Shown: positions 19,603-34,240, counted from the stretch's first letter. The stretch: 64,000 nt of DNA from a phage (GCA_025611195.1 GCA_025611195.1_4718.1), one strand, 5' to 3'. The notes: generated from the sequence alone by a model not told the origin. Numbers and translations: made by a program.

Positions 19603-20496
19603 TTATTCGGAAACGTTGTAACCGAATACCGCTTTACCGTAGGTGTGAGTACCGTCAGCTAATGACAGCACCAACACGTGGTTGTACGTAGCGTTAACGC
19701 CTTTATCGGTGGAATCGGTGGTAGCACCGTTATAGACGAAAGTAGCCGTTTGCAGATTGGCTTTCAGCTCGGTGATGATCTCGTCGCCCACACCCGTCTG
19801 CTCTTTGATCAGCGTGGTCAGGTTACCTGCCAGGCTTTCATCGATCTTGGTTTCGTTACTGGTAATCGCCTGTAAACCTGCGGTGTAGGTACTGAAGTCT
19901 AACGGATAGGTTAACAGACGCGCTGAGGTCTTGGTGCCATCGCCTTCATCAACGTAGGTTAAGTTACCCAGGTTGGTAACCTTGATGATGTTGGACAGAT
20001 CCAGCGTGGTGTTATAAACCTTAACTTGAACAGAACCGTACCAAGCCAGCGAATCTTCTTTGGCTTTCAGGGTGATCGTCTGGATACCATGATCGTCGAA
20101 GGTAACCGGCGTAGCTAACGTATCGGCTTTGATGTCTTTCGCTTTATCCAGGAACTTCTCACCGGAAGGTGTGATCATACCGTAGCGTTGAGCTACAAGG
20201 TCAACCACATCACCGATGGTGGTGTTTTTATTAACGTTAACGCGTACGGCGATCTTCTGGAACCACTTAGCCAGATCCAGACGATGATAGGTAACATCGC
20301 GGTCATTGAAGTAAGGAGTACCTTCACCAGGGCTAAGCGTTAAAGTTGCATCTGGAGCAGAATCGCTTTTGGATTTAAGAACGTATTTAAGGTCGGTGGG
20401 TTTGAAGTTGGCACCCGTATCGGCGTTGAGTGTGTTAATCTCATCAACGATAAGTTGCCAAGGTGTTTTTAAAGTAAGTGATACTTGAGCTGTCAT
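19603..20496 (-). CDS. putative virion structural protein (YxRxDL / LAW[TY]GSV paralog family)
   Basis: Motifs YHRLDLAKWF and SLAWYGSVQVKVY shared with 20643, 31567, 33389 and 34251 genes; fairly host-adapted codons; GAGGAAG SD. Confidence 0.55.
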   Translation of the reverse strand: MTAQVSLTLKTPWQLIVDEINTLNADTGANFKPTDLKYVLKSKSDSAPDATLTLSPGEGTPYFNDRDVTYHRLDLAKWFQKIAVRVNVNKNTTIGDVVDLVAQRYGMITPSGEKFLDKAKDIKADTLATPVTFDDHGIQTITLKAKEDSLAWYGSVQVKVYNTTLDLSNIIKVTNLGNLTYVDEGDGTKTSARLLTYPLDFSTYTAGLQAITSNETKIDESLAGNLTTLIKEQTGVGDEIITELKANLQTATFVYNGATTDSTDKGVNATYNHVLVLSLADGTHTYGKAVFGYNVSE

Positions 20497-20642: not shown

Positions 20643-21185
20643 ATGGCCTTAGACTTTAACAAAGCAGCCAAATCCCTTCTGCTTGATCTTATCAACACCA
20701 AAGCAACCCGCCCACTGACTGAAGAAGAACTGCAGTTCGGTACTCCGGGAGCATCTTCCGAACATGAAAAGAACACCGTTATCCAGCTGGATGCTGCAGC
20801 TGAAGCAGCTAACCTGCAGGGTACTCAGCAGTTCTACTACGATCGTCTGGCTCTGTCCGAAGTTTTCGCTGATGTAACCAGCGATGTTACTTTCGAACTG
20901 CCGCACGGCACTGACAGCATTAAGGCTTCCGAGCTGGTAAGCAAGCTGGTCACCAAATTCGGTCTGGCTTCCCTGACCGGTGAAATCAATGAAGAAACCT
21001 TCCAGCTGTCTGCTGGCACTGTTGGTGAAGTAACCCTGACTGCGATCGAGGGTGGTCTGGTATATACCGGCACCCTGCAGGTTGCACTGACCTACGCACC
21101 AGCACCGAAAGACGAACTGGCAACCGTTCTGGCGAATAACGTAGCTGAAGGTTTCGTGAAACCTGAAGTTGCTGTCGTTGGCTAA
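20643..21185 (+). CDS. abundant small structural protein (short member of the same paralog family)
   Basis: Strongly biased codon usage (CTG, GGT, ACC, GAA) like the capsid gene; motifs FYYDRLALSEVF and GGLVYTGTLQVALTY; GAGGA SD; double stop codon. Confidence 0.6.
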   Translation: MALDFNKAAKSLLLDLINTKATRPLTEEELQFGTPGASSEHEKNTVIQLDAAAEAANLQGTQQFYYDRLALSEVFADVTSDVTFELPHGTDSIKASELVSKLVTKFGLASLTGEINEETFQLSAGTVGEVTLTAIEGGLVYTGTLQVALTYAPAPKDELATVLANNVAEGFVKPEVAVVG

Positions 21186-21384
21186 TAAGCACGTAGAGCA
21201 ATAGTATGGGTTTTGTACAGCTCGGCTATTGCTCTTCTACAATTTGGTTGTAACAATCTGCGTGGTTGCACGCTTATCTTTCTCAATGAGCGCTTCATAC
21301 GAAGCGTGGTGTTGAAAGGGTTGTGGATCTCCTCAAGCGGCCAGGGACCCAGACCAACCTGAATAAACACAAACACATGTTAAG

Positions 21385-21416
21385 CCCCTCCTCATCCGTT
21401 ATTGGGTGGGGAGGGG
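21385..21416. terminator. GC hairpin with U-rich tail
   Basis: 13-bp stem CCCCTCCTCATCC/GGGTGGGGAGGGG (two G-U pairs), loop GTTATT, then TCTTATACGTCTTTAT; between convergent genes. Confidence 0.45.
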
Positions 21417-21479
21417 TCTTATACGTCTTTATGCGTTCCGTTCGTTCTGGAGCGTTTTAGGACGGTTTATGATGGTGTT

Positions 21480-22115
21480 TTACTCAACACTGAACCCGTT
21501 CAAGATGATCGCTTCATAACGCTTACGTTCACGACGTTTGCGTGCCTGCCAACCGTAGATGAATTTCTCATCTTTCTCGCGTCGCTCTGCTAACTCGATG
21601 TAATAAGTGCTCTGCATATCCAGCATCGCATCGATGAGATAATCCTTACCGGTTGCACCACGCTTAGCGATGTATGCGTCGAGCGCGCTTAACGTCGCAG
21701 GTCCCATCAAACCGTCGGCGTTGATATTTTTCCAGTAAGTTTGGCGGTTGTTCATGACGTTCAGATAACGCTGGAGGTTCTTAACCGGAACGGTTTTGCC
21801 TGCGTTGATACCCAGGTCAAAGAGACGATCAGCCAAGAACACGGAACGTTTCATGACCTCATCAAGCTTCATCTTATCCCAGAAGTGGGTCTTGTAGATA
21901 AAGAACGCCATTTCCGTGGTAAGGTTACGCATGTTACCGTCCCAGCCGAATTTCGTTTTCAGCGTGGTTTTGTATTGATCGGCGAGTGTTTTCGTAATGC
22001 CGTGGTTCGTGATTCCGCCCGAATCATCGGGATCGTCGACGTAACCTGCTTCGATGCTAGTTTTGTCACGAATTATGAATTCGCAAGTAAAATCTTTTTC
22101 AGTAATCTTAGCCAT
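21480..22115 (-). CDS. endolysin (GH108-type lysozyme with C-terminal peptidoglycan-binding domain)
   Basis: N-terminal EAGYVDDPDDSGGITNHGIT matches the GH108 catalytic motif; GAGGAG SD 5 nt before ATG. Confidence 0.75.
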   Translation of the reverse strand: MAKITEKDFTCEFIIRDKTSIEAGYVDDPDDSGGITNHGITKTLADQYKTTLKTKFGWDGNMRNLTTEMAFFIYKTHFWDKMKLDEVMKRSVFLADRLFDLGINAGKTVPVKNLQRYLNVMNNRQTYWKNINADGLMGPATLSALDAYIAKRGATGKDYLIDAMLDMQSTYYIELAERREKDEKFIYGWQARKRRERKRYEAIILNGFSVE

Positions 22116-22241
22116 TAGAACTCCTCATTTAAATAACGATTTAGAGGAACAGGAAGGGTCTAGAACGCGATAAACGATTTAACCCAGGCAAACCCTAGAT
22201 TAAACTTTTCGAAGCGTTACAACGCGTTCTAGAACGCTGAA

Positions 22242-24290
22242 TTAAATACCCTTGGTTCCTTTCACGTGATGTGCAATTTCTTCAACCATTGCACGCAGGG
22301 CACGAAGTTGTTGGTCGTGTTCATACCAACCGCCTAACAGAACCCCGCTATACACCATGGTGTCAAGACTTAACAGCCCTTTATCTGATACGTTGATCAT
22401 TTCCGGGAACTGTTCTTGAACACGCTGTGCGATAACACCGATCTTCTCGACATCAGGATCGTAGTTGTGACGGAAACGAGCGAGTCCGCTATGTGCCATC
22501 TCACGTAAACGATCACTGAAAGATTCCGGATGGTCTTTCAGATAACGGATGTCATGTTTACTGCGTTCATCAGAACGGATGTATGCGTTAGGAACATCGA
22601 TGTTGCTGTTGAAGTACAGCGCACTACCGCCACCGGCAGAGTTCCCCCAATAGAAGCTGGTTAAGATGCTACCCCCGTTACCTGTAACGTGCACCGTGCT
22701 GCCTACACGGGTTCCCCCACTACCATCAACGAAGACAAGCTTGTTCCCGCTGTAAGAACCCCAGAACAAACGGCTGTCGATGATGTTTGTTGCAGCGAGG
22801 CGAGCGTTACGTGGTGTAGAATACACGGTGTTAACATCTTGCTGTGCTTGCGCATCGGAAGCGATACCGTAGTTCTGAACATTCCCTAAGCCTACCTGGG
22901 CTTTGTTAACGGCGTGAGGGTTATCCCGACGGTTAGCGTGAGCATTAACCAGATCGCCCGCCAGTTTTTGAATAGCCCAGTTGGTAGATTGTGGCGTCAT
23001 ATAGCGGTTAGTTGCAGAACCACCTTGCGCTTCAGCTTGGTTAGCAGTTGGATAGTTCTCAACGCTTCCCAACCCTACCTGTGCTTTAGACACTTGGTGC
23101 GGGTTGTTCTTGTCGGCGATGTGCGCATTAAGCGGAACTAACGCGAAGGTCTCAATGGACGCTTTGGTGGTGTTCGGTGCCATTAATCGGTTAGCTGCAA
23201 CACCCGCACGCGCTTCTTCTTCAGAAGCCATCGGATAGTCTTGCACATTCCCTAACCCAACCTGCGCCTTGGTTACTCTGTGTGGGTTGTTGTAATCGGC
23301 TTTATGCGCATTAAGTGGAATCAATGCGAACTGTTCAATCGCTGCAACGGTACGTAGCGGTGTCATGAAACGGTTGTTCGCTGTTCCGGCTTTCGCCTCA
23401 TCATCCGAAGCGGTCGGGAAGTTATCAACGTTCCCAAGGTTAACCTGTGCTTTGGTGACGCTATGTGGGTTATCTCGACGGTTAGCATGCGCGTCGACTA
23501 GATCGCCCGCCAGTTTAGCAATCGCCCATCCAACCGTCTGTGCTGTCATGTATCGGTCAGGTGCGGTACCGGCTTCTGCCTCCGCCTTGTTTGCGGTAGG
23601 ATAGTTCTGTACGTTACCTAGTCCGACTTGGGCTTTTGTTACTTCATGCGGGTTATCGGTACGGTTAGCGTGCGCGTAATGCAGATCGGTCAGATCTTTA
23701 TCCGCTGCTTGCATGTCTTTGCGTAACTGATCGATTGCCGCCCAGAGACGGTTATCGGACGCAGCATCACCGATGAGTATTGCGGCTTTTAGCGAATAGA
23801 TCGCTAAGCAAAGATGTTCGGTACCGTAGATAGCACTAACGTGGTGGATGTGTGGTTCAGGCGGATAAAGTTCCGGTTTGTTCTTGATGTCGTCCCAGTT
23901 GATCGGACGATCGTCAAGTTTGAGTTCTTCGATAGCCTGATACAACGCATCAATAAGACTTACGTAAACACCACCGATGATACGATAGTCGTTAACTAAT
24001 GTACCCTCGATGTCATCGTTGATGATGGCGATGGCCGCACAGATTTCTTTACCAGCGTAAAGCGTAGCGTCCTGATACAAGAAAATGGGTTTGTAATCCA
24101 CGCCGCGTACCAGTGTCTTACCGGTAAGCTTTTCGGTGATAACCAGACTTTCGGTGAAGAACGGTCCGCCATCGAGGGCGTAACATTTATTCTCGGTTCG
24201 TGGAACGGTGTGCTCTTCACCAACGATGTGGTTGCTATCGAGCGTGCCGGTCCAGTCCTCGGGGTACTTCAGGGTAATTGGTGTTGACAT
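22242..24290 (-). CDS. tail fibre protein with C-terminal intramolecular chaperone (S74-like) domain
   Basis: Five NPHxVTKAQVGLGNVxNY repeats; C-terminal ~110 aa beginning SDERSKHDI resembles the self-cleaving chaperone domain of fibres/endosialidases. Confidence 0.8.
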   Translation of the reverse strand: MSTPITLKYPEDWTGTLDSNHIVGEEHTVPRTENKCYALDGGPFFTESLVITEKLTGKTLVRGVDYKPIFLYQDATLYAGKEICAAIAIINDDIEGTLVNDYRIIGGVYVSLIDALYQAIEELKLDDRPINWDDIKNKPELYPPEPHIHHVSAIYGTEHLCLAIYSLKAAILIGDAASDNRLWAAIDQLRKDMQAADKDLTDLHYAHANRTDNPHEVTKAQVGLGNVQNYPTANKAEAEAGTAPDRYMTAQTVGWAIAKLAGDLVDAHANRRDNPHSVTKAQVNLGNVDNFPTASDDEAKAGTANNRFMTPLRTVAAIEQFALIPLNAHKADYNNPHRVTKAQVGLGNVQDYPMASEEEARAGVAANRLMAPNTTKASIETFALVPLNAHIADKNNPHQVSKAQVGLGSVENYPTANQAEAQGGSATNRYMTPQSTNWAIQKLAGDLVNAHANRRDNPHAVNKAQVGLGNVQNYGIASDAQAQQDVNTVYSTPRNARLAATNIIDSRLFWGSYSGNKLVFVDGSGGTRVGSTVHVTGNGGSILTSFYWGNSAGGGSALYFNSNIDVPNAYIRSDERSKHDIRYLKDHPESFSDRLREMAHSGLARFRHNYDPDVEKIGVIAQRVQEQFPEMINVSDKGLLSLDTMVYSGVLLGGWYEHDQQLRALRAMVEEIAHHVKGTKGI

Positions 24291-24303
24291 AACCTGGAGG
24301 TCC

Positions 24304-26907
24304 TTATAACGTGACTGTACCTAATTTGGTTGTCTTATTGAGATTGATGACAGAAATCTGGGTATCGCTGGTCGTAATCGTCCCGATGTTAACGCGCTGC
24401 CCTTTATCATCTTCTTGCTTGTGGATGGTTAACTCCAATTCTAACTGGTCGCCATTAGGAACAACGGAAACGTACCATGTTTTATTACCTGGTGAGCTAT
24501 TATAGTCTTTTAGGTTATAATGGCCTTTAGGTAGGGTCATGACTTTACCAGCAAACAAGCAAGTGATGTCTTCGTTGATGTAGATATCGTAACCGGAAGC
24601 AGCAACGACCGTAGAAACCATGTAACGGTTTTTAACAGCGAGAGCTTTATATTCCGCAACGGAATTGCCGACAACACTAAAGACTTGACCGCCATTACCC
24701 ATCACCGTAGAGACTGCGGCATCAACATAACCGATTCCCCACACCGGATGTACGTTCCAACGATAGCCGCTTGACTGTAGGTAAGCATACAAACCTTCAA
24801 ATGCGATGGTTGTCCAGTTCCCATCGTTTTGTCGTCCAGCTCGGAACTGATAGGTGTTCTGGTTCCCTGCAGACTGACGTAAATACGGAACATGTCCAGC
24901 AACAAGCCACCCATCACTCACCTTCTTGTAAGCTAATACACCCCAGGCGGCATTCTGACTGTAGATATTTGTTGAATCGGGGTCTTCGACATAACCCAGC
25001 AGTTTGGTTACGCCCGTCACCGTAATAGCGCCTTTACGTGCGGATACGGTAACCTCCGCAGCGATTCGTCCATGTACGCGTGTGCTGGTATTACAGCCAG
25101 CAACAAACAGAATACACGGTGCGTTTGTACCATCTGGAGGTACGGCTAACGCATGCTGCCACCGACTGACGCCAGACACCTTGTTTCCGGTATATGCGTT
25201 CCACACGAGCTGTCCGCCTGCTTGCAGGTTGGCTGCGGTTATGCTGATGGCTTCACCGGAAGGTGCGAGTTTGGTGGCGTCGTATCCGATTTTACCGGAT
25301 AAGTTTGAATCAGTTAAATAAGACCCGCTAACTACCGTATTGTCATCGCTTAAATGTACGGTTAGGAAAGGTCGCGACATTTGACCTGCGCTAACCACCA
25401 CGTTGTTGGAAGGCGGAAAACCGTAAACGTCAATACCTTCTCCCTGATAACGGTAATCGAGATTCCAGTCATAGGTCACTAGACGAGCCTCAAAATTACC
25501 CTGTCCACCACCCGTACGTGAGTTAACGAAAACCTTGTTTTTAGAAAAGAAACCCAGGTAACCATGGGACGCGAGTGCACCTACGATGCGATCCCCGACG
25601 TTTTTCCAGTATGAGTCGTACTGTATTCCACCAGTAGGACCGAGTTTGGCGAGTTCGTCGAACACATTTCCAGAGAAACCGTTGATGGTGTACGATCGCG
25701 CTTGGGGGGCGGATAAATTGTCGTTTTGGATAATGGCTACCTGACCGCGTTCGTTGATTTCGATATTCCCGGTACCGTTACCCGAACGCCATTGCCAGAA
25801 ACCATCGTTATACTCACTTGTTCCATCGGTTGTAGTAGATGGTCCTACCCAGTCTATCCCGCTATCTGTTGACACGTATGTGGATTGTCCAGCGCCCGGG
25901 TTCATGCTGTAACTGTTGTTGGCGGTTTCAAAATCGAGATAGAACTGATGTAGCCCGTTCTTTTGCTGGTTTTTGCGGTTGTTCGTCCACCATGCCGAAG
26001 CAATCAGAATACGTGCTTTAGTACCTTTGGTTGCTGCGAGCATACGAATCTGAGCACGCCAGACGGTTTGACCGATCCCATCAGAAGGGAAATCGTTAGT
26101 AGTTATGCGGTTGCAGACAATCATCTCGGCACTGTTGCTTATCGCCGTTCCTTCTATCGTTCTACCGCTAATATTCGTAAGCTGTGTAGCCGCTACGCTG
26201 CCACCGCTGGGACCGATGGAAGATTTGGTTACGGTATAAACATTTAAGTAGAGTTTATAACTGTTAGTGCCAGCGATAGCGATGTAGATTTTACCGTTAA
26301 TTTCCCAACAGCAGATATGCGGTGATGTATCAACAAAGTTGGCAAGACTACCATCAAGATACATGGCGACATGTTTGGATGCGTCAAACGTTCCGTCTGT
26401 CAACGCGATAAACATTTTAGGGCTGCTACCGTCTTCAAAAGCAGCTTGACCTAACATGATACCGTTCTGGTGACAGTATATCACCGTAGGAATACGATCG
26501 AGCGTTGCGGGCTCATAGCGGCGGCTGGTTGGAATAACTTCAGTGATCTGTCCGTTTTGATTTGTTTTACAGATAACGTAGTAAACCCCTTTCTTTACGC
26601 TGTTCGTTGCCGAACGCAGTAACACGATGGTACCATCGGATTCACGGCATACGCCGTAACGACGGTATTTGTCGTTTAGACAGATAGCACCATCAGCGGA
26701 GCCTTCGATTGCCAGAGGAAAATAACTTTGATCCCCAACCTGTTCGATATCGGTTACGCCGATATCGATGTATTTTTCCATCTCGGTGTCGAACTCAGCG
26801 GTACTATAGGCACCGAGATCGCTCGCCTTTAGTCCCGTTGGGTTGTCGCGACTGGCGATACGTGTATTAACGCTACTCACCAGTTCACTGAACTTTTTCA
26901 TTGCCAT
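24304..26907 (-). CDS. large tail/receptor-binding protein
   Basis: 867-aa G/S/T/N-rich ORF between the fibre genes; N-terminus carries RDNPTGLKASDLG, a single fibre-repeat-like motif. Confidence 0.55.
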   Translation of the reverse strand: MAMKKFSELVSSVNTRIASRDNPTGLKASDLGAYSTAEFDTEMEKYIDIGVTDIEQVGDQSYFPLAIEGSADGAICLNDKYRRYGVCRESDGTIVLLRSATNSVKKGVYYVICKTNQNGQITEVIPTSRRYEPATLDRIPTVIYCHQNGIMLGQAAFEDGSSPKMFIALTDGTFDASKHVAMYLDGSLANFVDTSPHICCWEINGKIYIAIAGTNSYKLYLNVYTVTKSSIGPSGGSVAATQLTNISGRTIEGTAISNSAEMIVCNRITTNDFPSDGIGQTVWRAQIRMLAATKGTKARILIASAWWTNNRKNQQKNGLHQFYLDFETANNSYSMNPGAGQSTYVSTDSGIDWVGPSTTTDGTSEYNDGFWQWRSGNGTGNIEINERGQVAIIQNDNLSAPQARSYTINGFSGNVFDELAKLGPTGGIQYDSYWKNVGDRIVGALASHGYLGFFSKNKVFVNSRTGGGQGNFEARLVTYDWNLDYRYQGEGIDVYGFPPSNNVVVSAGQMSRPFLTVHLSDDNTVVSGSYLTDSNLSGKIGYDATKLAPSGEAISITAANLQAGGQLVWNAYTGNKVSGVSRWQHALAVPPDGTNAPCILFVAGCNTSTRVHGRIAAEVTVSARKGAITVTGVTKLLGYVEDPDSTNIYSQNAAWGVLAYKKVSDGWLVAGHVPYLRQSAGNQNTYQFRAGRQNDGNWTTIAFEGLYAYLQSSGYRWNVHPVWGIGYVDAAVSTVMGNGGQVFSVVGNSVAEYKALAVKNRYMVSTVVAASGYDIYINEDITCLFAGKVMTLPKGHYNLKDYNSSPGNKTWYVSVVPNGDQLELELTIHKQEDDKGQRVNIGTITTSDTQISVINLNKTTKLGTVTL

Positions 26908-26919
26908 TATTCACCTCGA

Positions 26920-27405
26920 TTAAATAGGCGAGTCGGGAAGCTGACCATCATCGATCTCGATGGCGGCCACCTTACGTGTCGCAGCAAGATGTGATGTACC
27001 CTGGACTTTGTTCCAGGTACCGATACGCATGGTGTTTTTGTAGCTGCTATCGCTATCGTTCAGCGTGTAAACAAAACCGCTATCGGTTACGGCAAGATAG
27101 ATCCAGCCTACAGACTCACTGATACCCGACACGTCCAAAGTTGTTGCTGGCACCGTCCCTACCACCGTGTTGTATTCCGCTGTACCTTGGCCAATGCTGA
27201 TCCGCCCGTTGCTGTAACTGGCTGCCGGAAGCGTTTTATTTCGACTGAAGAAAAGAAACGGAAGGTAACGCTGGGTAACAAGCGGTGCAAGTTTAGGAGC
27301 CACTTCGGTCTTAGTGTAGACATCTGTTTGTTCTGGCGTTACCTCGTGAGGGTTCTTTTGGGTAAGATACGTTCCCCATTCAGAAAGCAGTGTTGATAGC
27401 TTCAT
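26920..27405 (-). CDS. small tail-fibre-associated protein
   Basis: N-terminal KNPHEVTPEQTDV resembles one fibre repeat; lies in the fibre module. Confidence 0.5.
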   Translation of the reverse strand: MKLSTLLSEWGTYLTQKNPHEVTPEQTDVYTKTEVAPKLAPLVTQRYLPFLFFSRNKTLPAASYSNGRISIGQGTAEYNTVVGTVPATTLDVSGISESVGWIYLAVTDSGFVYTLNDSDSSYKNTMRIGTWNKVQGTSHLAATRKVAAIEIDDGQLPDSPI

Positions 27406-27409
27406 GCGG

Positions 27410-27919
27410 TTACCCCATGTAACGTTTTTGGCCGAGGATGAAGACTTTGTTAAATACCACCGAAGTGATTCCTGATGCGTTACAGCTTACCTGCCCGACG
27501 CGAATTGCTGTTGACGTATCGACCCCAGCACTACTCTGCCAGCTCCAATCAATCGATCCGTCTTTCTGATGAATGAAAAGATAACCGGTTTTGTTCGCCC
27601 AGTCGGAAGTAAGATTTTTGATGTCTAACGTTCCTTTCGCCAGAATATAGTCGGTACCGGCGATCATGACGGGGATTTCAGGATACGAGATTACCGTACC
27701 GCTAGCGGTAACGTTGCTGATGCGATCACTACGGATATCGGTACAATCACCGAAATACGCTACGGGGAGTATCCCCTTAGGTAGCTTTTTGTCGATTCTC
27801 GTATCGATCGTGCTTTTATCGGGTGCGTCGATTTGCGCTGCAGTGACTTGGTTAGGGTTATCCTTCCTTGCATACCACGTCGTCATGCGAGCACCCAACT
27901 CACTCATTTTTGTGCCCAT
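27410..27919 (-). CDS. small tail-fibre-associated protein
   Basis: ORF 27410..27925 (GTG) trimmed to ATG 27919 with AGGA upstream; N-terminal RKDNPNQVTAAQIDA motif. Confidence 0.5.
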   Translation of the reverse strand: MGTKMSELGARMTTWYARKDNPNQVTAAQIDAPDKSTIDTRIDKKLPKGILPVAYFGDCTDIRSDRISNVTASGTVISYPEIPVMIAGTDYILAKGTLDIKNLTSDWANKTGYLFIHQKDGSIDWSWQSSAGVDTSTAIRVGQVSCNASGITSVVFNKVFILGQKRYMG

Positions 27920-27976
27920 TTTCACGTCCTATCGAAAAATAAAAAGAAGGAAAGGTGGGTAGAACCCACCCATCCA

Positions 27977-30130
27977 TTATAACGTTTCGAAGTCTTTTGC
28001 CTTGATGACCGCGTTGAAGTTGGCAAGGAATTCCTTAAGTAATGCTTGGAAAACATCGCGGAACGCCGCGTTCGTCTTCAAGCTGGTTAAATAATCGTTC
28101 TTAAGGTAATCACTAAGCTTACCGATCTTCTGCATTGTCACGCCTTCATCGTTCTCTCCGGGTTCCTGGCTATTGATATTAGCCCACTTGATCCCTTCGA
28201 GATCGCCATCAGCAAGGAAGTTAGCTGGCGTCTCATCATCGTTAAGGATTTTGATCGTGTCGCTGGATTCAATACCACCGTAAGCTTCCAGAAGCTGGTT
28301 GACGGTCAACTTATTGACGTTGATTGAACCATTAGCACCATCGATACCGAGTCCGGTACCCGTGATAGACGTTGCTGAAAGATCGATTGGTCCGGTTAAC
28401 TTACCCCCATTGATAGGGAGCGCACCGACTTGTTCGGCTGTGTGCGTGTGATCTGCTAACGCCGCGAACGCTGCAATCGACTTGTAAGTCGAGTACGGTG
28501 TCATGTACGCCGTCTGGTTAGTCCTGTCAGCAGCTTGCACATCGGTGGCGACAGCAAAGTCCTGTACGTTCCCTAACCCCACTTGTACCTTGGTTACTTC
28601 ATGCGGGTTACTCTTATCGACAACGTGTGCTGCAAAACCATCACCTGCTAAAGCGATGATCGCTGCTTTTGTCGCAGCCGGTGTCATATAGCGGTTGGTC
28701 GCTACACCTGTTTGCGCTTCCACATCAGAAGCAACAGGGTAGTTCTCAACACTCCCCAACCCAACCTGGGTTTTCGTTACCCTGTGCGGGTTCTCGGTAT
28801 TTGCGATGTGGCTACTGAACCCTTGACCAGCCATTTGCTCGATCGCGTAACGAACAAGTATTGGTGTCATGTACTTGTTGTTAGCCTGACCGTCGATCGC
28901 TTCTTGGGTAGTAGCAACCCCAAAGTTCTGCACACTTCCCAGACCGACTTGGGCTTTTGTCACCCCATGCGGGTTATTGGTGTTACCGATATGTTCGGTT
29001 ACGGTTGGGGTGATTAACGCTGCGATAGCGGCGGCTGTGGTCGCAGGCGTCATGTATTTGTTGTTAGCAACACCCGCACCAGCTTCCCCATTAGACGCTA
29101 CACCATAGTTCTGTACGTCCCCCAGCCCTACCTGTGCTTTCGTAACAGCATGAGGGTTGTTATTATCCTCGGTATGGGTTGTTAACGTAGCGTTGACATG
29201 ATCGATGCGTGTACTTAAGCCGTCCGTGATTGCCTTGATTGCTGCTCGTACACCCGCTGGAGTCGTGTACAGATTAGTGGCTGTACCGGTAACGGTTGTA
29301 TTATCATCGGCTACACCGTAGTTCTCAACGTCTCCGAGTCCCACCTGGGCTTTGGTCACCTTGTGTGGGTTGTTGCGGTTACTGATGTGTGCGGCGGCAC
29401 TATCACCACTAAGGTTAGCGATCATCTTGCGCGTCATCGCCAACGTCATGTACAGATTTTCACCGACAGTTTCCAGATCGCTCTCAGTCGCTGTTGTGAA
29501 ATTCTGCACATTCCCTAAGCCCACCTGGGCTTTCGTAACGCCGTGGGGATTATCGCGTCGATTCTCATGCTGTACTAACGCAGTCATTGCTTTATTGAAC
29601 CCTTCTTCAAGCGGTTCTTTCAATGACTCGATTGCAGCCACCACATCGTCCCACGTCATTGTGTCGGTTTCGACATTATGTTGGTGGTTGATTGGTGGGA
29701 ATACAGAAGGAACGTCGGCAACCTTTTCCCAGAACGTAACACGAGGATCGTAAAGGTTGTTGGCTAAAACGTTAAGAATTTGTTGTTGATCAAGTGTAAA
29801 CTCACCCCCCAGTGAATAGTAGTTCAGTTGCAACTGTCCACTGAATGCGGTGTCCAACAGCATGATGGAACCGTATAATTCCAGGCCGGTCAGCGCAGCC
29901 ATGGCACGGAAGGGGTGAGTGCATAAAAAGTCAACGCCTTCTTCCAGATACGCGTTTGTTTCAGGGTTGTAGATCTTTAACCCATTACGAAAATAGGGTG
30001 CGTATTTAGGAACGAGAAAGTTAAATCCGGTCCCCGTGGAAGGACGGACAGTGACGAGTTCTTCTGGAACCCATGCGCCATCCAAATTCCCCTGCGGGTT
30101 ATACGGAAGGCGTTTAATTTCATCTGTCAT
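27977..30130 (-). CDS. tail fibre protein
   Basis: Six NPHxVTKAQVGLG(N/S/D)V(Q/E)N(F/Y) repeats; N-terminal region similar to that of the 22242..24290 fibre; no chaperone domain. Confidence 0.8.
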   Translation of the reverse strand: MTDEIKRLPYNPQGNLDGAWVPEELVTVRPSTGTGFNFLVPKYAPYFRNGLKIYNPETNAYLEEGVDFLCTHPFRAMAALTGLELYGSIMLLDTAFSGQLQLNYYSLGGEFTLDQQQILNVLANNLYDPRVTFWEKVADVPSVFPPINHQHNVETDTMTWDDVVAAIESLKEPLEEGFNKAMTALVQHENRRDNPHGVTKAQVGLGNVQNFTTATESDLETVGENLYMTLAMTRKMIANLSGDSAAAHISNRNNPHKVTKAQVGLGDVENYGVADDNTTVTGTATNLYTTPAGVRAAIKAITDGLSTRIDHVNATLTTHTEDNNNPHAVTKAQVGLGDVQNYGVASNGEAGAGVANNKYMTPATTAAAIAALITPTVTEHIGNTNNPHGVTKAQVGLGSVQNFGVATTQEAIDGQANNKYMTPILVRYAIEQMAGQGFSSHIANTENPHRVTKTQVGLGSVENYPVASDVEAQTGVATNRYMTPAATKAAIIALAGDGFAAHVVDKSNPHEVTKVQVGLGNVQDFAVATDVQAADRTNQTAYMTPYSTYKSIAAFAALADHTHTAEQVGALPINGGKLTGPIDLSATSITGTGLGIDGANGSINVNKLTVNQLLEAYGGIESSDTIKILNDDETPANFLADGDLEGIKWANINSQEPGENDEGVTMQKIGKLSDYLKNDYLTSLKTNAAFRDVFQALLKEFLANFNAVIKAKDFETL

Positions 30131-30162
30131 GATGCGCCCTTTACAAGTTGTTAGTAAGTGTG

Positions 30163-30180
30163 GGATACCCTGGGGTATCC
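30163..30180. promoter_or_regulatory. 18-bp palindrome GGATACCCTGGGGTATCC
   Basis: Between divergent starts of the fibre gene (30130) and 30235..31515; AATATTACTGTAAC lies 20 nt downstream. Confidence 0.3.
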
Positions 30181-30234
30181 TGTGTTAACAGCGGTAAAAT
30201 ATTACTGTAACTATAAAATAAGGGGGCCTCTCCC

Positions 30235-31515
30235 ATGTATACATTGGTAAAAACTTACGGATTACCCGTAGGTTCCGGCACGGCCTGGACAGCACTTGAG
30301 GCGGGTGAAAGTGTCCTGAGTACGTTGTTCTCAGCGTATCAAAAACTCAAGATCCAGGTTCATGAAAGCTATGCTGACCAGCAACAAGTTATTGATCTGT
30401 ACACATTTCAATCCGAGCTTCAAAACAGCAATGACACGCTCAATGCGTGGTTGAAAGCGAAATCGGATGCGCACACCAACCTTCGAGGACAGCCTGGTGA
30501 GCTGTCGATTAAAACCCACAAGCTTTATTGTCACGACGTTATTACCGTAGGCTTTCTCCCTAAAGTCGGTAATAGCGGTTATCATCCGAGCAACGCGATC
30601 CCTGAGTCGGAACGTACCGATATCCTGTTGACGAAAGCGGATACGAATTACGAAAATATCGGCAAACATTGCTTGTTCACCGTAGGCGGTTATGTTCATC
30701 CTCATGTTTACGGTAAAGACGTCGGTGTCTATATCCAGGGTGGGTTCGAGACAGCACAGCGTAGCCAAGAAAACGATATCGGCATGATTGATTTTAGTCG
30801 TATCGGGAGTTTGGAAATCCACGCTATCACAGAAGAGATGCTTGCTGATTCCACGAAGCTCTTGCCGTATAAGGACGAGATGTACTTACGGCTACCACGC
30901 AAGGTCGCCGAAGATGAAACCGTCGCGCTTGTGTTCGGGGGATATCTACACCTTCTTGACGATTGTTACACGATCGTTAGTGACACGACGGCAAAAATAA
31001 ACTGCAGAAACATGTTTCTGTATGAAAGATACTTCCGCTCCCGCAAATACCTTGATTTAACGTCTCTTGGTATTCTGTTGAACGAAGAAGACCCGCAGTC
31101 CGATATTGTTGCCAATCGTTTACTGTCTGATAAGACTTTAAAAGCATGGGTGACACACCCCTGCAGTTTCTGGGTGTATATCAAAGCAACATCGATTCAG
31201 GTTACACAAGAACCTTTACCACGAAGTGGTGTACCAGGACAATATTTCTTAGGTAAGAAACCGGAAGGACTGATTCGAGCTGACCTCGGTGAGTTACCGG
31301 CTTACGTGCAGACCTATGAAAAACCGTTATGGGTACTTCACTCACGCTGGGGACTTCGTAAGAACATGTTGTTTGAAAACACGTTGTACAAACATACACG
31401 CGTTAAGCGGCTTAACGATACACCTTATCTTCACCAGGTCTGGTTGGAAACGCACGCGACGTTGCAGACAGTACATAAGCTCGAATTGATCGATTCCAGT
31501 CAGAAAAACAAATAA
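30235..31515 (+). CDS. hypothetical protein in tail module
   Basis: 426-aa ORF, ATG with AAGGGGG upstream; only + gene within the tail module. Confidence 0.5.
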   Translation: MYTLVKTYGLPVGSGTAWTALEAGESVLSTLFSAYQKLKIQVHESYADQQQVIDLYTFQSELQNSNDTLNAWLKAKSDAHTNLRGQPGELSIKTHKLYCHDVITVGFLPKVGNSGYHPSNAIPESERTDILLTKADTNYENIGKHCLFTVGGYVHPHVYGKDVGVYIQGGFETAQRSQENDIGMIDFSRIGSLEIHAITEEMLADSTKLLPYKDEMYLRLPRKVAEDETVALVFGGYLHLLDDCYTIVSDTTAKINCRNMFLYERYFRSRKYLDLTSLGILLNEEDPQSDIVANRLLSDKTLKAWVTHPCSFWVYIKATSIQVTQEPLPRSGVPGQYFLGKKPEGLIRADLGELPAYVQTYEKPLWVLHSRWGLRKNMLFENTLYKHTRVKRLNDTPYLHQVWLETHATLQTVHKLELIDSSQKNK

Positions 31516-31525
31516 ACAAACATAA

Positions 31526-31557
31526 CCCTCCTCCAACCCATCAGGGAAGGAGGAGGG
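31526..31557. terminator. conserved two-tier GC hairpin (family copy)
   Basis: CCCTCCTCC/GGAGGAGGG stem, loop AACCCATCAGGGAA; between convergent genes. Confidence 0.45.
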
Positions 31558-31566
31558 AATATGTTG

Positions 31567-32472
31567 TTATGCCACGTATAACGTTAGATAACCGTCGATG
31601 AGCGTATTCATCACACTGAGTTGAAGTACAACAGCTTTACGAGCGTCTGTACGTACACCAAATGGTAGTGTTTTGAAATGCTCTGGATCGGCTATTACTT
31701 TCGCATTCTGCAAGTTGAGCGGTCCAGGTATTGACGACAATACCCAACGATCGTTGGCCGTAAGACCGTCGATCTCTTCAGAGAGACCCAATTGCAGTGC
31801 GTTCATTTCTGCGATTAATGCCTCCGATTGTGTATCACCTGAGGTTAACGTATACCCATCAGTAAGTGACGTTAGAACATCATCAGACATGAACCAGTTG
31901 TACGAAACAATAGCGCCTGGGAGTTTATCACTATCTCGATCGATGAGATAATTCAACCCAGCCAACATATTGTTGCGAATGAGGTTGTTGAGGTCGTTAT
32001 GTCCTGAAGTTAACTCAACAAGTAATTGACCAACCCATACTTGGTTACCAGGTTTAGGTGTTATCGCAACATGTATCGGTGATTTGGATTTATCCAGATC
32101 CGCGTCGACAATCTCGGTTTTATTGAGAAGGATACCGTACGTTGATGCTAAGACAGGTAATATCTCAGAGACCTTGGTCAGCGCGTCTAAGGTTTCGATC
32201 TCGATGGGCCAGCGGTGCTGGCCACCAGACCAAATACCCAGTTTACCAAGATCAACGCGGTTATAATAGATGTCGACAGAGTTCACCAGCCCTGAACCTG
32301 GTTGGGGATGCACAGTTAACTTGCTGTTACGCTTGTACCCTGTGCTTTCAGAAGCCTCACCGATAACCAGTTTATCCAGCGTTACGCCTCGAGCATCGAA
32401 ATCGCTATGCTTTCGAATCAGCCGAAAGAGGATTTCTTTCGATTCTAACCCTAGGATTTCACTGTACTCCAT
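31567..32472 (-). CDS. putative structural protein (paralog family)
   Basis: Motifs YYNRVDLGKL, NQVWVGQLLVELT and ANDRWVL...LNLQNAKV shared with 33389 and 34251 genes. Confidence 0.55.
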   Translation of the reverse strand: MEYSEILGLESKEILFRLIRKHSDFDARGVTLDKLVIGEASESTGYKRNSKLTVHPQPGSGLVNSVDIYYNRVDLGKLGIWSGGQHRWPIEIETLDALTKVSEILPVLASTYGILLNKTEIVDADLDKSKSPIHVAITPKPGNQVWVGQLLVELTSGHNDLNNLIRNNMLAGLNYLIDRDSDKLPGAIVSYNWFMSDDVLTSLTDGYTLTSGDTQSEALIAEMNALQLGLSEEIDGLTANDRWVLSSIPGPLNLQNAKVIADPEHFKTLPFGVRTDARKAVVLQLSVMNTLIDGYLTLYVA

Positions 32473-32487
32473 TTAACACCCCTTAGG

Positions 32488-33372
32488 TTACGGTAGGATT
32501 TCTGCGCCTGTCGGGCCTGCCTTACGAGCTTCCAACGCACCAAGGTCGTATTTCAACGTCAGCGTATCGTTGGTGGTAAATAGGTTGTGGTAAGTCGAAA
32601 TCAGATCGGTAACCTGTGCGCCTACGATTTCGTTCATGTCGAAGGTAGAACCTTGACCATCTTCAGCACGAACGATTTTGTCACCAGCAGAGACCATCCC
32701 AATTTCAGAAATAACCGCGTACTCTTCACCACCTTCGGTGAGTTTAGCCACATTGAGATATTCGTTAATATCCCATGGTGTCCAGACCAAAGAGACCTTA
32801 CAGCTATAATCGTAGTACTCTCCGGTCGCCACCAGAATTCCTGTTGTTGGAATATCCGGTCGGGGCGGGTTGAGGTTCTTGTCGGTTGGATGCCATTCGA
32901 TGGTCTGAGCAACACCATCGATGTACTTGGTATACCGCATGGAGCGGACAACGTTATCGAAATCGATACGACGACCGTAATAACAGATGTACTTTTTACC
33001 GTTTTCCAGCGTCTCAATACGACGTAACCCAAATTTAGCGCGTTCGTCTGTGGTCAAATCGTTACCAACTTCACGCATCACGAAAGGTTTGATTTTCCAT
33101 GGTGAAAGATCGCTTGCTTCGTGAGCGATCGGCATCGAGGAAGGGATGCCGTTAGCGTTGCGGATGAATTCGTGACCTTGGTTGCCGATACAGAAGTAAC
33201 GTACAGCAGGATTACCCTCGGGGTAAATCTTTGATTGAATCTGAAGCTTTTCGTTCAAGGTGCTGTGTTCTTCCCACGCATGAGGAAGACCGAGCGTAAG
33301 GTTCGTTTGTACTTGACCGCCGATAATCGTACGGACGATACGATCGGTAGCACGGATTTGTGTAGAAGCCAT
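32488..33372 (-). CDS. putative structural protein
   Basis: 294-aa ORF embedded between paralog-family genes; no recognised motif. Confidence 0.5.
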   Translation of the reverse strand: MASTQIRATDRIVRTIIGGQVQTNLTLGLPHAWEEHSTLNEKLQIQSKIYPEGNPAVRYFCIGNQGHEFIRNANGIPSSMPIAHEASDLSPWKIKPFVMREVGNDLTTDERAKFGLRRIETLENGKKYICYYGRRIDFDNVVRSMRYTKYIDGVAQTIEWHPTDKNLNPPRPDIPTTGILVATGEYYDYSCKVSLVWTPWDINEYLNVAKLTEGGEEYAVISEIGMVSAGDKIVRAEDGQGSTFDMNEIVGAQVTDLISTYHNLFTTNDTLTLKYDLGALEARKAGPTGAEILP

Positions 33373-33388
33373 GTCTTTTCCTATTTAA

Positions 33389-34240
33389 TCAGTTATATTG
33401 CATCAACAGGATACCGCCGTAGTTCGTGCAGTAATCTTGGCTAAGCGTAACGATAACAGCGTTAGCGAACGCAGGGTTAACAGGATAACCCTGTGCGATA
33501 AGTTCTGTTGTTTTACCGGTTGCGAGTACGGTAGCCCCGTAAAGGTTGTTTTCGTCTTCACGGCCGTTATAAACCCATGGGGTTGGTGCAACGTTGTTGA
33601 ATAAGCTGACCATTGCGCTTAGGTTACCACCAACCTTTAACCCGGCAAGATCGGAACGGATTGCCGTGCAGTCTATAGCGTAACTGTAGACCAATGCCTG
33701 GATACGATTTGCGGTGTAGTACGGGAAATTGAGACCGGTCATCACCGAAGTCTTCATCATCCCCGCAATATCGTGGGCACTATCGAGGAGGTAGAATGTA
33801 ACACTTCCCGTCCAAGCCAATCCGGTGTTTTTCAATTCTACGACATGAGGGAATGGGTATTCATCACCTCGTACAATCGGAGAATCGACGCAGCTATCCT
33901 GATCGATAACGATTCCGTACGTCGATTGGATCAGAGGGATAAGATCGTGCGTTGTTTTAACCCCGGCGTCGATAGCAAGCTTCGGTTCCATTCCCAAGAA
34001 GAAGTCTTGGATAGGGATACGATCGTACCACACGTAGCTGCTTTCACGGTATTGTGCTGGCGTTACTGTTGCCGAAGGCGATACCTTAGCGCGGGTGTTC
34101 CGTTTATACGCGTGGTTTCCGTTTTCAGCAGCATCCGTGATCTCAAGCGCATCGAAGTTAAAGTCGAAGTCAGGATTGGCTGCCTGAATAAGTTCGGCGA
34201 CCAGTACTTTAGGACTTTTGTTTAACAATTTCTGACTCAT
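33389..34240 (-). CDS. putative structural protein (paralog family)
   Basis: Motifs WYDRIPIQDFF, GLAWTGSVTFYLL and YCTNYGGILLMQYN. Confidence 0.55.
   Translation of the reverse strand: MSQKLLNKSPKVLVAELIQAANPDFDFNFDALEITDAAENGNHAYKRNTRAKVSPSATVTPAQYRESSYVWYDRIPIQDFFLGMEPKLAIDAGVKTTHDLIPLIQSTYGIVIDQDSCVDSPIVRGDEYPFPHVVELKNTGLAWTGSVTFYLLDSAHDIAGMMKTSVMTGLNFPYYTANRIQALVYSYAIDCTAIRSDLAGLKVGGNLSAMVSLFNNVAPTPWVYNGREDENNLYGATVLATGKTTELIAQGYPVNPAFANAVIVTLSQDYCTNYGGILLMQYN

Follow-up and report, generated by a model that had tools for sequence, protein, structure and literature searches.

The window analysed here, a 64,000-nucleotide (nt) stretch of phage DNA taken at its whole length, carries between positions 22242 and 30130 a set of tail-fibre genes, and all five minus-strand open reading frames (ORFs) that a first-pass annotation had reported there were found. 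They encode fibre A (717 amino acids [aa], 27977-30130), fibre B (682 aa, 22242-24290) and, between the two, a trio of proteins referred to below as C (171 aa from the GTG at 27925, 27410-27925), D (161 aa, 26920-27405) and E (867 aa, 24304-26907). The region from 22000 to 30300 shares 91.9% nucleotide identity, across 99% of its length, with Escherichia phage vB_EcoM_Goslar, a 237-kb nucleus-forming jumbo phage. Gene order is the same in both, and each protein has a one-to-one Goslar ortholog of equal length (A, gp29; C, gp28; D, gp27; E, gp26; B, gp25) with 93-97.5% amino-acid identity; in an E. coli isolate assembly, a 135-kb contig encodes identical proteins. We interpret the region as encoding the peripheral fibres of the baseplate in a Goslar-like chimallivirus, and assign a probability of roughly 0.7 to its full proposed architecture, comprising anchored fibres, cleavage by a Peptidase_S74 domain, a docked trio and an exchangeable propeller cassette.

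Both fibres are built from an N-terminal anchor domain, a shaft of repeats and a distinct C-terminal part. In fibre A, the gp131-type anchor domain (residues 1-175, nt 29606-30130) is followed by six repeats (residues 187-556, nt 28463-29572) and a C-terminal domain (residues 557-717) that begins with HTHTAEQVGALPINGG, ends in a helical tail and has no S74 domain. In fibre B, the anchor domain (residues 1-172, nt 23775-24290) precedes five repeats of 61 aa (residues 206-504, nt 22779-23675), a glycine-rich tip (residues 505-572, nt 22575-22778) and a Peptidase_S74 intramolecular chaperone (residues 573-682, nt 22245-22574). The predicted six and five copies of the NPHxVTKxQVGLGxV repeat were recovered both by regular expression and by a repeat hidden Markov model (HMM; independent E-values of 1e-26 to 1e-31 for each copy), and a regular expression on A and B defines the invariant core as H-x5-NPH-x-V-[TSN]-K-x-Q-V-x-L-G-x-V. 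The period of about 45 aa proposed earlier has to be corrected to 61 aa (183 nt), with spacings of 60, 71, 61, 61 and 61 aa in A and of 61 aa throughout in B.

The relatedness of the N-terminal domains of A and B, also claimed in the first-pass annotation, is borne out by three lines of comparison. BLASTP aligns A with B from residues 43-45 on through the repeats (39% identity, E-value 1e-92), PHROG 2163 is matched from residue 1 by both A (1e-134) and B (2e-143), and both proteins match the gp131 family of phage PhiKZ from residue ~4-10 on, A aligning with gp131 (BLASTP, 4e-44) and B with gp135, gp131, gp134 and gp133 (BLASTP, 1e-30 to 3e-21). The N-terminal domain of A occurs in 287 phage records, all from jumbo phages of the PhiKZ/EL/SPN3US/RAY type and often two to three times per genome. 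The anchor domain of ~175 aa that characterizes the PhiKZ gp131-like family is present in A and B and lacking in the three trio proteins, which are therefore classified as headless relatives and not as full members of the family. The repeat HMM finds one or two copies in PhiKZ gp131-135, compared with six and five in A and B. A sequence search of A, B and E against all PDB chains returned nothing meaningful, so that the 61-aa repeat has no sequence-detectable solved homolog; a ribosomal L18e match of A (E-value 0.008) was rejected as spurious, and protein E gave only matches with E-values above 0.2. NCBIfam returned no match for any of the six proteins searched, A has no Pfam match, and a T4 gp10-like branching domain was matched in neither A nor B by Pfam or PHROG.

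Divergently from fibre A lies the gp30 ortholog (426 aa, 30235-31515, plus strand), which matches PhiKZ gp130 with an E-value of 3e-26 over residues 1-337. A gene of this type occupies the same position and orientation in PhiKZ, in Erwinia phage RAY, in Serratia phage PCH45 and in four Goslar-group contigs (L003-L006, of which L003 measures 236 kb and comes from an assembly of Salmonella Enteritidis). Further on, gp32 (32488-33372), a DUF7208 gene, matches PhiKZ gp139 (E-value 5e-51). Homology thus shows A and B to carry gp131-type anchors, and gp30 to be the homolog of PhiKZ gp130. Cryo-electron microscopy of PhiKZ revealed 12 peripheral fibres beneath gp130, each base consisting of six N-terminal domains of gp131 type, together with a six-helix bundle (PMC13250141). 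By analogy, the anchors of A and B would plug into a gp130-like platform encoded by gp30, the likely docking platform, from which shafts of six and five 61-aa repeats would extend.

Published mass-spectrometry data on the Goslar virion indicate that all five orthologs are virion proteins. Low, median and high estimates are 57.7, 86.7 and 136 copies for gp25 and 50.1, 75.3 and 118 for gp29, compared with 9.5, 14.3 and 22.4 for gp28, 9.2, 13.8 and 21.6 for gp27, and 8.5, 12.8 and 20.1 for gp26 (10.64898/2026.04.21.720040 Table S4). On these estimates the two fibres occur in equal numbers, as do the three trio proteins, with each fibre outnumbering each trio protein by ~6:1. The same preprint regards gp25 and gp29 as likely components of the fibres (10.64898/2026.04.21.720040). 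Because the fibres are equimolar in Goslar virions and six domains form each fibre base in PhiKZ, A and B probably occur together at each docking site. The assignment of the genes to a tail-fibre module is thereby upheld, A and B being homologs of the PhiKZ gp131 family, a gp130 homolog adjoining them, and Goslar gp25 and gp29 being abundant and labelled as tail fibre.

The first-pass annotation had further proposed that B alone ends in a chaperone domain, beginning SDERSKHDI, and cleaves itself. The domain search supports the first part, since B matches Pfam Peptidase_S74 (PF13884) above the cutoff, with 25.2 bits where 22 are required (E-value 2.1e-5; residues 573-631, aligned with positions 1-56 of the 58 in the profile), and its L003 and L006 orthologs match the family as well. 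At the start of the domain, S573-D-E-R-S-K578 places a serine and a lysine at the +5 spacing that defines the catalytic dyad in endoNF (S911/K916) and MyRF (S587/K592) (PMC8326128). The best PDB sequence match of the B domain is the distal subunit (gp37) of the long tail fibre of Salmonella phage S16 (6F45, E-value 0.022), in which SDRRIK aligns with SDERSK. B thus resembles the chaperones of endosialidases, T5 pb1 and S16 gp37 in having the domain C-terminal to a fibre tip, an S-D-x-R-x-K start and the +5 dyad, and differs from them in the weakness of the match (25 bits; PDB E-value 0.022) and in an upstream tip that is glycine-rich and only ~70 residues long.

As regards cleavage itself, two chaperone-domain peptides of Goslar gp25, DHPESLSER and AMVEEIAHHVK, are absent from the part of Table S4 covering peptides that start with A to D, in which only these two are testable. 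Peptides of the mature region of gp25 are present in the same part (AEAEAGTAPDR..., ASIETFALVPLNAHIADK and DLTDLHYAHANR). By comparison, the control peptide ATDFETL, from the very C-terminus of gp29, is detected in the portion of the Goslar virion list covered, which indicates that the ortholog of fibre A is not C-terminally processed. The absence of the chaperone peptides is consistent, if thinly, with cleavage of B; the predicted self-cleavage is supported by the Pfam score, the Ser573/Lys578 dyad and the Goslar peptide pattern, which within that part of the table comprises two peptides. The motifs of the S74 domain are plain, and from them we infer the cleavage chemistry: the chaperone would fold the glycine-rich tip in cis and then undergo autoproteolysis at Ser573 using Lys578, exposing a short, fast-evolving tip. 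Of the 22 differences between B and Goslar gp25, 13 fall in residues 501-550, and their concentration in the ~70-residue glycine-rich segment matches what would be expected of an exposed receptor-binding tip.

The three proteins between the fibres were said to start with one repeat-like motif each and, on that basis, to dock onto the fibre. The start of C is probably the ATG at 27919 (169 aa, MGTKMSEL), which is used by all relatives and by the Goslar annotation and lies two codons past the GTG at 27925. C comprises an N-terminal helix with the motif KDNPNQVTAAQ and a beta-domain (residues 72-170; hereafter Cdom); D carries the motif KNPHEVTPEQ...YTKTEV and a diverged copy of Cdom; and in E the motif (residues 3-57, nt 26737-26901) and Cdom (residues 761-867, nt 24307-24627) enclose a large beta-rich middle. 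Homology of the motif with the fibre repeat stands, whereas the literal pattern [RK]DNP..VT fits C only, the forms found by regular expression being KDNPNQVT in C, KNPHEVT in D and RDNPTGLK in E. The fibre-repeat HMM is weak on the trio: it gives E-values of 0.026 for C and 0.36 for D, which are nonetheless the best non-fibre matches among the 677 ORFs of the window, and no match for E (867 aa). For significance, the reverse comparison and the PhiKZ proteins were needed. An HMM of the first 55 residues of the C, D and E orthologs matches A (1.3e-17) and B (1.1e-14) at every repeat, and nothing beyond these two fibres among the 677 window ORFs. It also matches the last, variant repeat of PhiKZ gp131, gp133, gp134 and gp135 (3e-9 to 6e-7), a unit of the form NPHxVTAxQVxxYTKxQVD that stands before the C-terminal domain in each of these four proteins. 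D aligns with residues 318-345 of PhiKZ gp131 at 50% identity over 28 aa (BLASTP, 1.4e-4). The motif is the most conserved part of the trio proteins, staying invariant even where identity falls to 34% in homologs of E, 30% in homologs of C and 36% in orthologs of D.

Cdom is common to C and E (PHROG 3573/26864/7449; custom HMM, 1e-44 and 3e-52), and D aligns with the C family over 118 columns spanning motif and Cdom (hhalign probability 97.5%, E-value 5e-12). A Pfam Lyase_8 match of D (E-value 0.01; 15.8 bits, cutoff 27) was sub-threshold and rejected. The domain resembles the shoulder domains of the lactococcal p2 receptor-binding protein (RBP) and of TssK, with 8-13% sequence identity; unlike in the lactococcal p2/1358 RBPs and TssK, it lies C-terminally instead of N-terminally, and no neck or head domain accompanies it. 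Anchored counterparts in RAY link the trio with the fibres: gp18 consists of anchor, repeat and Cdom, gp19 of anchor, repeat, a large insert and Cdom, and gp20 is headless. Likewise, PCH45 encodes headless proteins of 159 and 887 aa next to two anchored repeat fibres. Since a first search with C gave only relatives at least 80% identical, a profile of distant orthologs was needed; against 1.84 billion representatives, this C-family profile recruited multi-repeat fibres through the motif segment, with up to 13 matched stretches. The best 150 of the 739 representatives matched include 60 short headless proteins, 35 long proteins with a C-terminal Cdom and 47 multi-repeat fibres, so the headless form is common. 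Taken together, profile comparisons show C, D and E to be mutual paralogs and anchor-less members of the fibre family that consist of the last helix and NP-motif unit followed by an RBP-shoulder-type beta-domain. A still smaller protein of this kind is PhiKZ gp132 (L002 8811-9143, 110 aa), a minimal headless paralog with approximately one repeat (HMM, 4e-16, residues 40-88) and no anchor; the PhiKZ atlas lists it as a paralog without placing it in the structure (PMC13250141). The trio genes are contiguous, closely spaced and in the same order in six phages; in L003-L006 the order is C-D-E, neighbouring genes being separated by 0-12 nt or overlapping by 4 nt, and the position of the fibre B gene varies, before or after the trio.

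Docking of the trio onto the fibre is plausible but unproven, the motif, its conservation and the presence of the proteins in virions being real; anchor-less paralogs of the fibre family is the better description of them than dockers. In the architecture proposed here, the trio would enter the virion as a 1:1:1 set, possibly a heterotrimer, with its invariant N-terminal unit attaching to a fibre or to the base of the fibres. A more specific version, which we regard as tentative and rather unlikely, is that C, D and E form one pseudo-symmetric heterotrimer that supplies the final repeat layer of a homotrimeric shaft in trans, one of its chains carrying the propeller. If true, this would be a split fibre to which each chain contributes one helix, one NP-motif strand and one shoulder-type beta-domain, and its specificity cassette could be swapped without touching the anchored shaft genes. 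Copy numbers, tried as a discriminator between a heterotrimer and homotrimers, were set aside, because the three published normalisations span 36:6 to 108:18.

Alternatively, the trio may represent independent receptor-binding homotrimers docked on the peripheral baseplate, for instance on gp30 or on DUF7941/DUF7208 proteins, and not on the repeat fibres. The trio lacks the anchor domain and canonical repeats, its beta-domain is like the shoulders of p2 RBP and TssK, which dock directly on baseplates, and the high copy estimates of ~20-22 lie near 18, the number for six homotrimers of each protein. However, the most conserved element of the trio is homologous to the shaft repeat, specifically to the shaft-ending unit of PhiKZ gp131 and gp133-135, and in RAY the same beta-domain sits at the distal end of anchored fibres, not at the baseplate end; we therefore consider this arrangement unlikely. 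Highly improbable, in our assessment, is a role of C and D as assembly chaperones or adaptors of E that stay attached without being structural paralogous subunits. In favour of it, both genes are small and directly precede that of a large receptor-binding protein, the fibre module of L004 includes a genuine Phage_tail_APC chaperone, and some fibre chaperones do stay on the virion, such as S16 gp38 (6F45). Nevertheless, C and D share the N-terminal motif and beta-domain of E, which makes them its paralogs and not a chaperone family; Pfam and PHROG searches of C and D returned no chaperone match; and both proteins are equimolar with E in purified virions.

The middle of E (~residues 115-760, nt 24625-26564) is an exchangeable cassette in which AlphaFold2 models a beta-propeller. 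Between the window and L003, amino-acid identity is 99.6% for A, 99.3% for B, 98.6% for gp30, 93.5% for C and 83.9% for D, and falls to 52% for E. No nucleotide similarity was detected between 24625-26564 and the corresponding ~1.9 kb of L003 (10341-12274), while the flanks, 21000-24624 and 26565-33400, align with L003 at 94-95% or, on the wider estimate, 94-98%. The left breakpoint is sharp and coincides with the start of Cdom; on the right, similarity decays gradually through the D gene (79%). Compared with Goslar the pattern is reversed, E being 92% identical and the repeats and C-terminus of A 84-86%, next to 98% for the A anchor domain, with the boundary at the junction of anchor and repeats. 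Module exchange is thus real, takes place between phages at domain boundaries, and has its main hot spot in E. Because it is replaced wholesale between otherwise near-identical phages, the middle of E is a likely host-range determinant. The replacement is directly observed; as to function, we infer from the modelled fold that the propeller, inserted between motif and beta-domain, most likely recognises surface carbohydrate and sets host range.

Exchange of this kind differs from the mechanism put forward in the first-pass annotation, in which receptor-binding modules are shuffled by recombination between DNA repeats that are nearly identical, both inside each fibre gene and from one to the other. 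Several observations point in that direction: the distal domains past the last repeat vary among relatives (S74 tip, tip with a separate chaperone, immunoglobulin [Ig]-like domains and others), repeat numbers vary between distant relatives, and a boundary is visible at the anchor/repeat junction of A relative to Goslar (98% against 84%). In distant relatives, the B-type fibre continues past its last repeat either as a short tip accompanied by a separate Phage_tail_APC gene (30.6 bits, cutoff 26.6) or as an unrelated 130-aa tip, and the A-type fibre is extended by Invasin_D3/Big_1 Ig-like domains. However, the repeat copies within the genome are only 60-75% identical, with a mean of 61% over an 84-nt core and a longest shared exact word of 18 nt, and Tandem Repeats Finder detects no repeat array. 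Moreover, repeat numbers and gene lengths are constant among all close relatives, variation (6/5, 5/6, 6/3) being found among distant ones, and the sharpest exchange lies in the E gene, which has no tandem repeats. The premise of near-identity is largely refuted, and of the proposed shuffling there remains module exchange between phages; repeat-driven recombination as its motor appears quite improbable.

Upstream of the trio, the 51-nt gap between the genes of fibre A and C contains, on the minus strand, a GC-rich hairpin followed by a U-run (27953-27971) that resembles a terminator or attenuator. A hairpin with a U-run stands directly upstream of the first trio gene also in Goslar, L003-L006 and PCH45, whichever gene precedes; its sequence varies between lineages, the position being conserved and not the sequence. 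It is consistent with the ~6-fold lower dosage of the trio. Read-through fusion of A to C, which share a frame, was ruled out by two in-frame stops (TAA and TAG) between them. A scan for sigma-70 promoters was uninformative, finding fewer sites than in shuffled sequence; Goslar-like phages use their own RNA polymerases.

Several points weigh against the architecture as a whole. The evidence for cleavage of B consists of two absent peptides within the A-to-D part of the peptide list, and the predicted cleavage site follows an arginine, where autoproteolysis is indistinguishable from a tryptic cut. The propeller model reaches only medium confidence (predicted local distance difference test score, pLDDT, 71.5), searches of Pfam, PDB and NCBIfam matched the propeller sequence to no family of lectins or hydrolases, and no family signature or catalytic residues were found, so that carbohydrate binding by E derives from the fold class only. 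The B gene lies downstream of the low-copy trio, yet its product is abundant in virions, and the conserved hairpin alone does not account for dosage. Label-free copy numbers fit 36:6, 72:12 and 108:18 equally and accommodate a heterotrimer as well as three homotrimers. Finally, fibres and peripheral baseplate are unresolved in the Goslar map (10.64898/2026.04.21.720040), and in the PhiKZ map the fibres were only docked at low resolution (PMC13250141).

Around the module, several features bear on its regulation and extent. The intergenic region between the divergent A and gp30 genes (30131-30234, 104 nt) is almost invariant, Goslar, L003 and L006 differing at 0 or 1 position in 110 nt, and exceeds the flanking genes in conservation. 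Within it, at ~30160-30177, lies a perfect palindrome, GGATACCC-CA-GGGTATCC, of which one half-site is left in L004 and L005, a candidate regulatory site for divergent late genes. Immediately downstream of B lies a lysin gene with GH108 and PG_binding_3 domains (211 aa, 21480-22115, minus strand; Pfam E-values 1e-20 and 1e-18), the ortholog of Goslar gp24. It is probably the last gene of the fibre transcription unit, and the Goslar annotation places a terminator after gp24. In Goslar virions, gp24 is present at 51, 76 and 120 copies, in the range of the fibres (10.64898/2026.04.21.720040 Table S4), and its label-free quantification area per mass is 8.2, compared with 9.3 and 8.0 for the two fibres (10.64898/2026.04.21.720040). 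The gp24-type lysin may therefore be a virion-associated member of the fibre/baseplate module rather than, or besides, a lysis enzyme. DUF7941 genes surround the module (19603-20496, minus strand; 20643-21185, plus strand; 31567-32472, minus strand; and neighbours); in the Goslar preprint their products are proposed to be long baseplate-anchored filaments that form a 'fibre cloud' (10.64898/2026.04.21.720040). The stretch from 19 to 34 kb looks like a host-recognition and peripheral-baseplate island. Goslar-like genomes also occur, often as separate contigs of ~235-245 kb, in hundreds of isolate assemblies labelled as E. coli (including O157), Salmonella (many serovars), Shigella flexneri and Enterobacter hormaechei, which suggests that these virulent jumbo phages are often carried by clinical and food isolates (in a carrier state or by pseudolysogeny) or grown together with them.

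Branched RBP systems with an N-terminal docking peptide include those of G7C and CBA120 and, in Klebsiella phages, those of the KP32 type. KP32-type systems are similar in principle to the module described here, with anchor-less secondary RBPs that combine a conserved short N-terminal element with variable distal parts (PMC13352976); here, in contrast, the presumed docking element is itself derived from the shaft, as one of its repeats, and primary and secondary proteins are paralogous. As no T4 gp10-like branching domain was matched in A or B, the analogy is functional only. A close parallel is the PhiKZ gp131-135 set (PMC13250141), likewise a run of paralogs with a divergent gp130 homolog and a gp139 homolog nearby, the A/B-type anchor, a repeat of the 61-aa type, the terminal variant repeat NPHxVTAxQVxxYTKxQVD, one member with a distal beta-propeller and one very small headless paralog, gp132. 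The two sets differ in that PhiKZ has four anchored paralogs with one or two repeats, whereas two anchored fibres with five to six repeats and three headless proteins are found here; in addition, the propellers have no sequence similarity, Cdom was not detected in gp131-135, and S74 is not seen there. In Goslar, gp25 had already been annotated as Peptidase_S74 (Korf et al., 2019), and the table of mass-spectrometry results gives gp25 as well as gp29 the label tail fibre, whereas gp26-gp28 are 'hypothetical' and not discussed in the preprint text (10.64898/2026.04.21.720040); differences from the window cluster in the B tip, the A repeats and the A C-terminus. The module is thus a variant of the PhiKZ gp131-135 set and the direct ortholog of Goslar gp25-29, and this kind of system is known. 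In the literature searched, we found no description of gp26-28 as anchor-less fibre paralogs, of the shared RBP-shoulder-like domain, of the anchored counterparts in RAY or of the E cassette.

Goslar and PhiKZ are model nucleus-forming phages, and the bearing of these results is on their virions; no general principle of phage biology is changed. Three 'hypothetical' virion proteins of the Goslar type, gp26-28, are assigned to the fibre family, and a stoichiometric and architectural model, with anchored fibres and a low-copy trio that may dock on them, is offered for the unresolved fibre density of Goslar and PhiKZ virions. The middle of E is flagged as a natural host-range cassette, which would be useful for host-range engineering and receptor screens.

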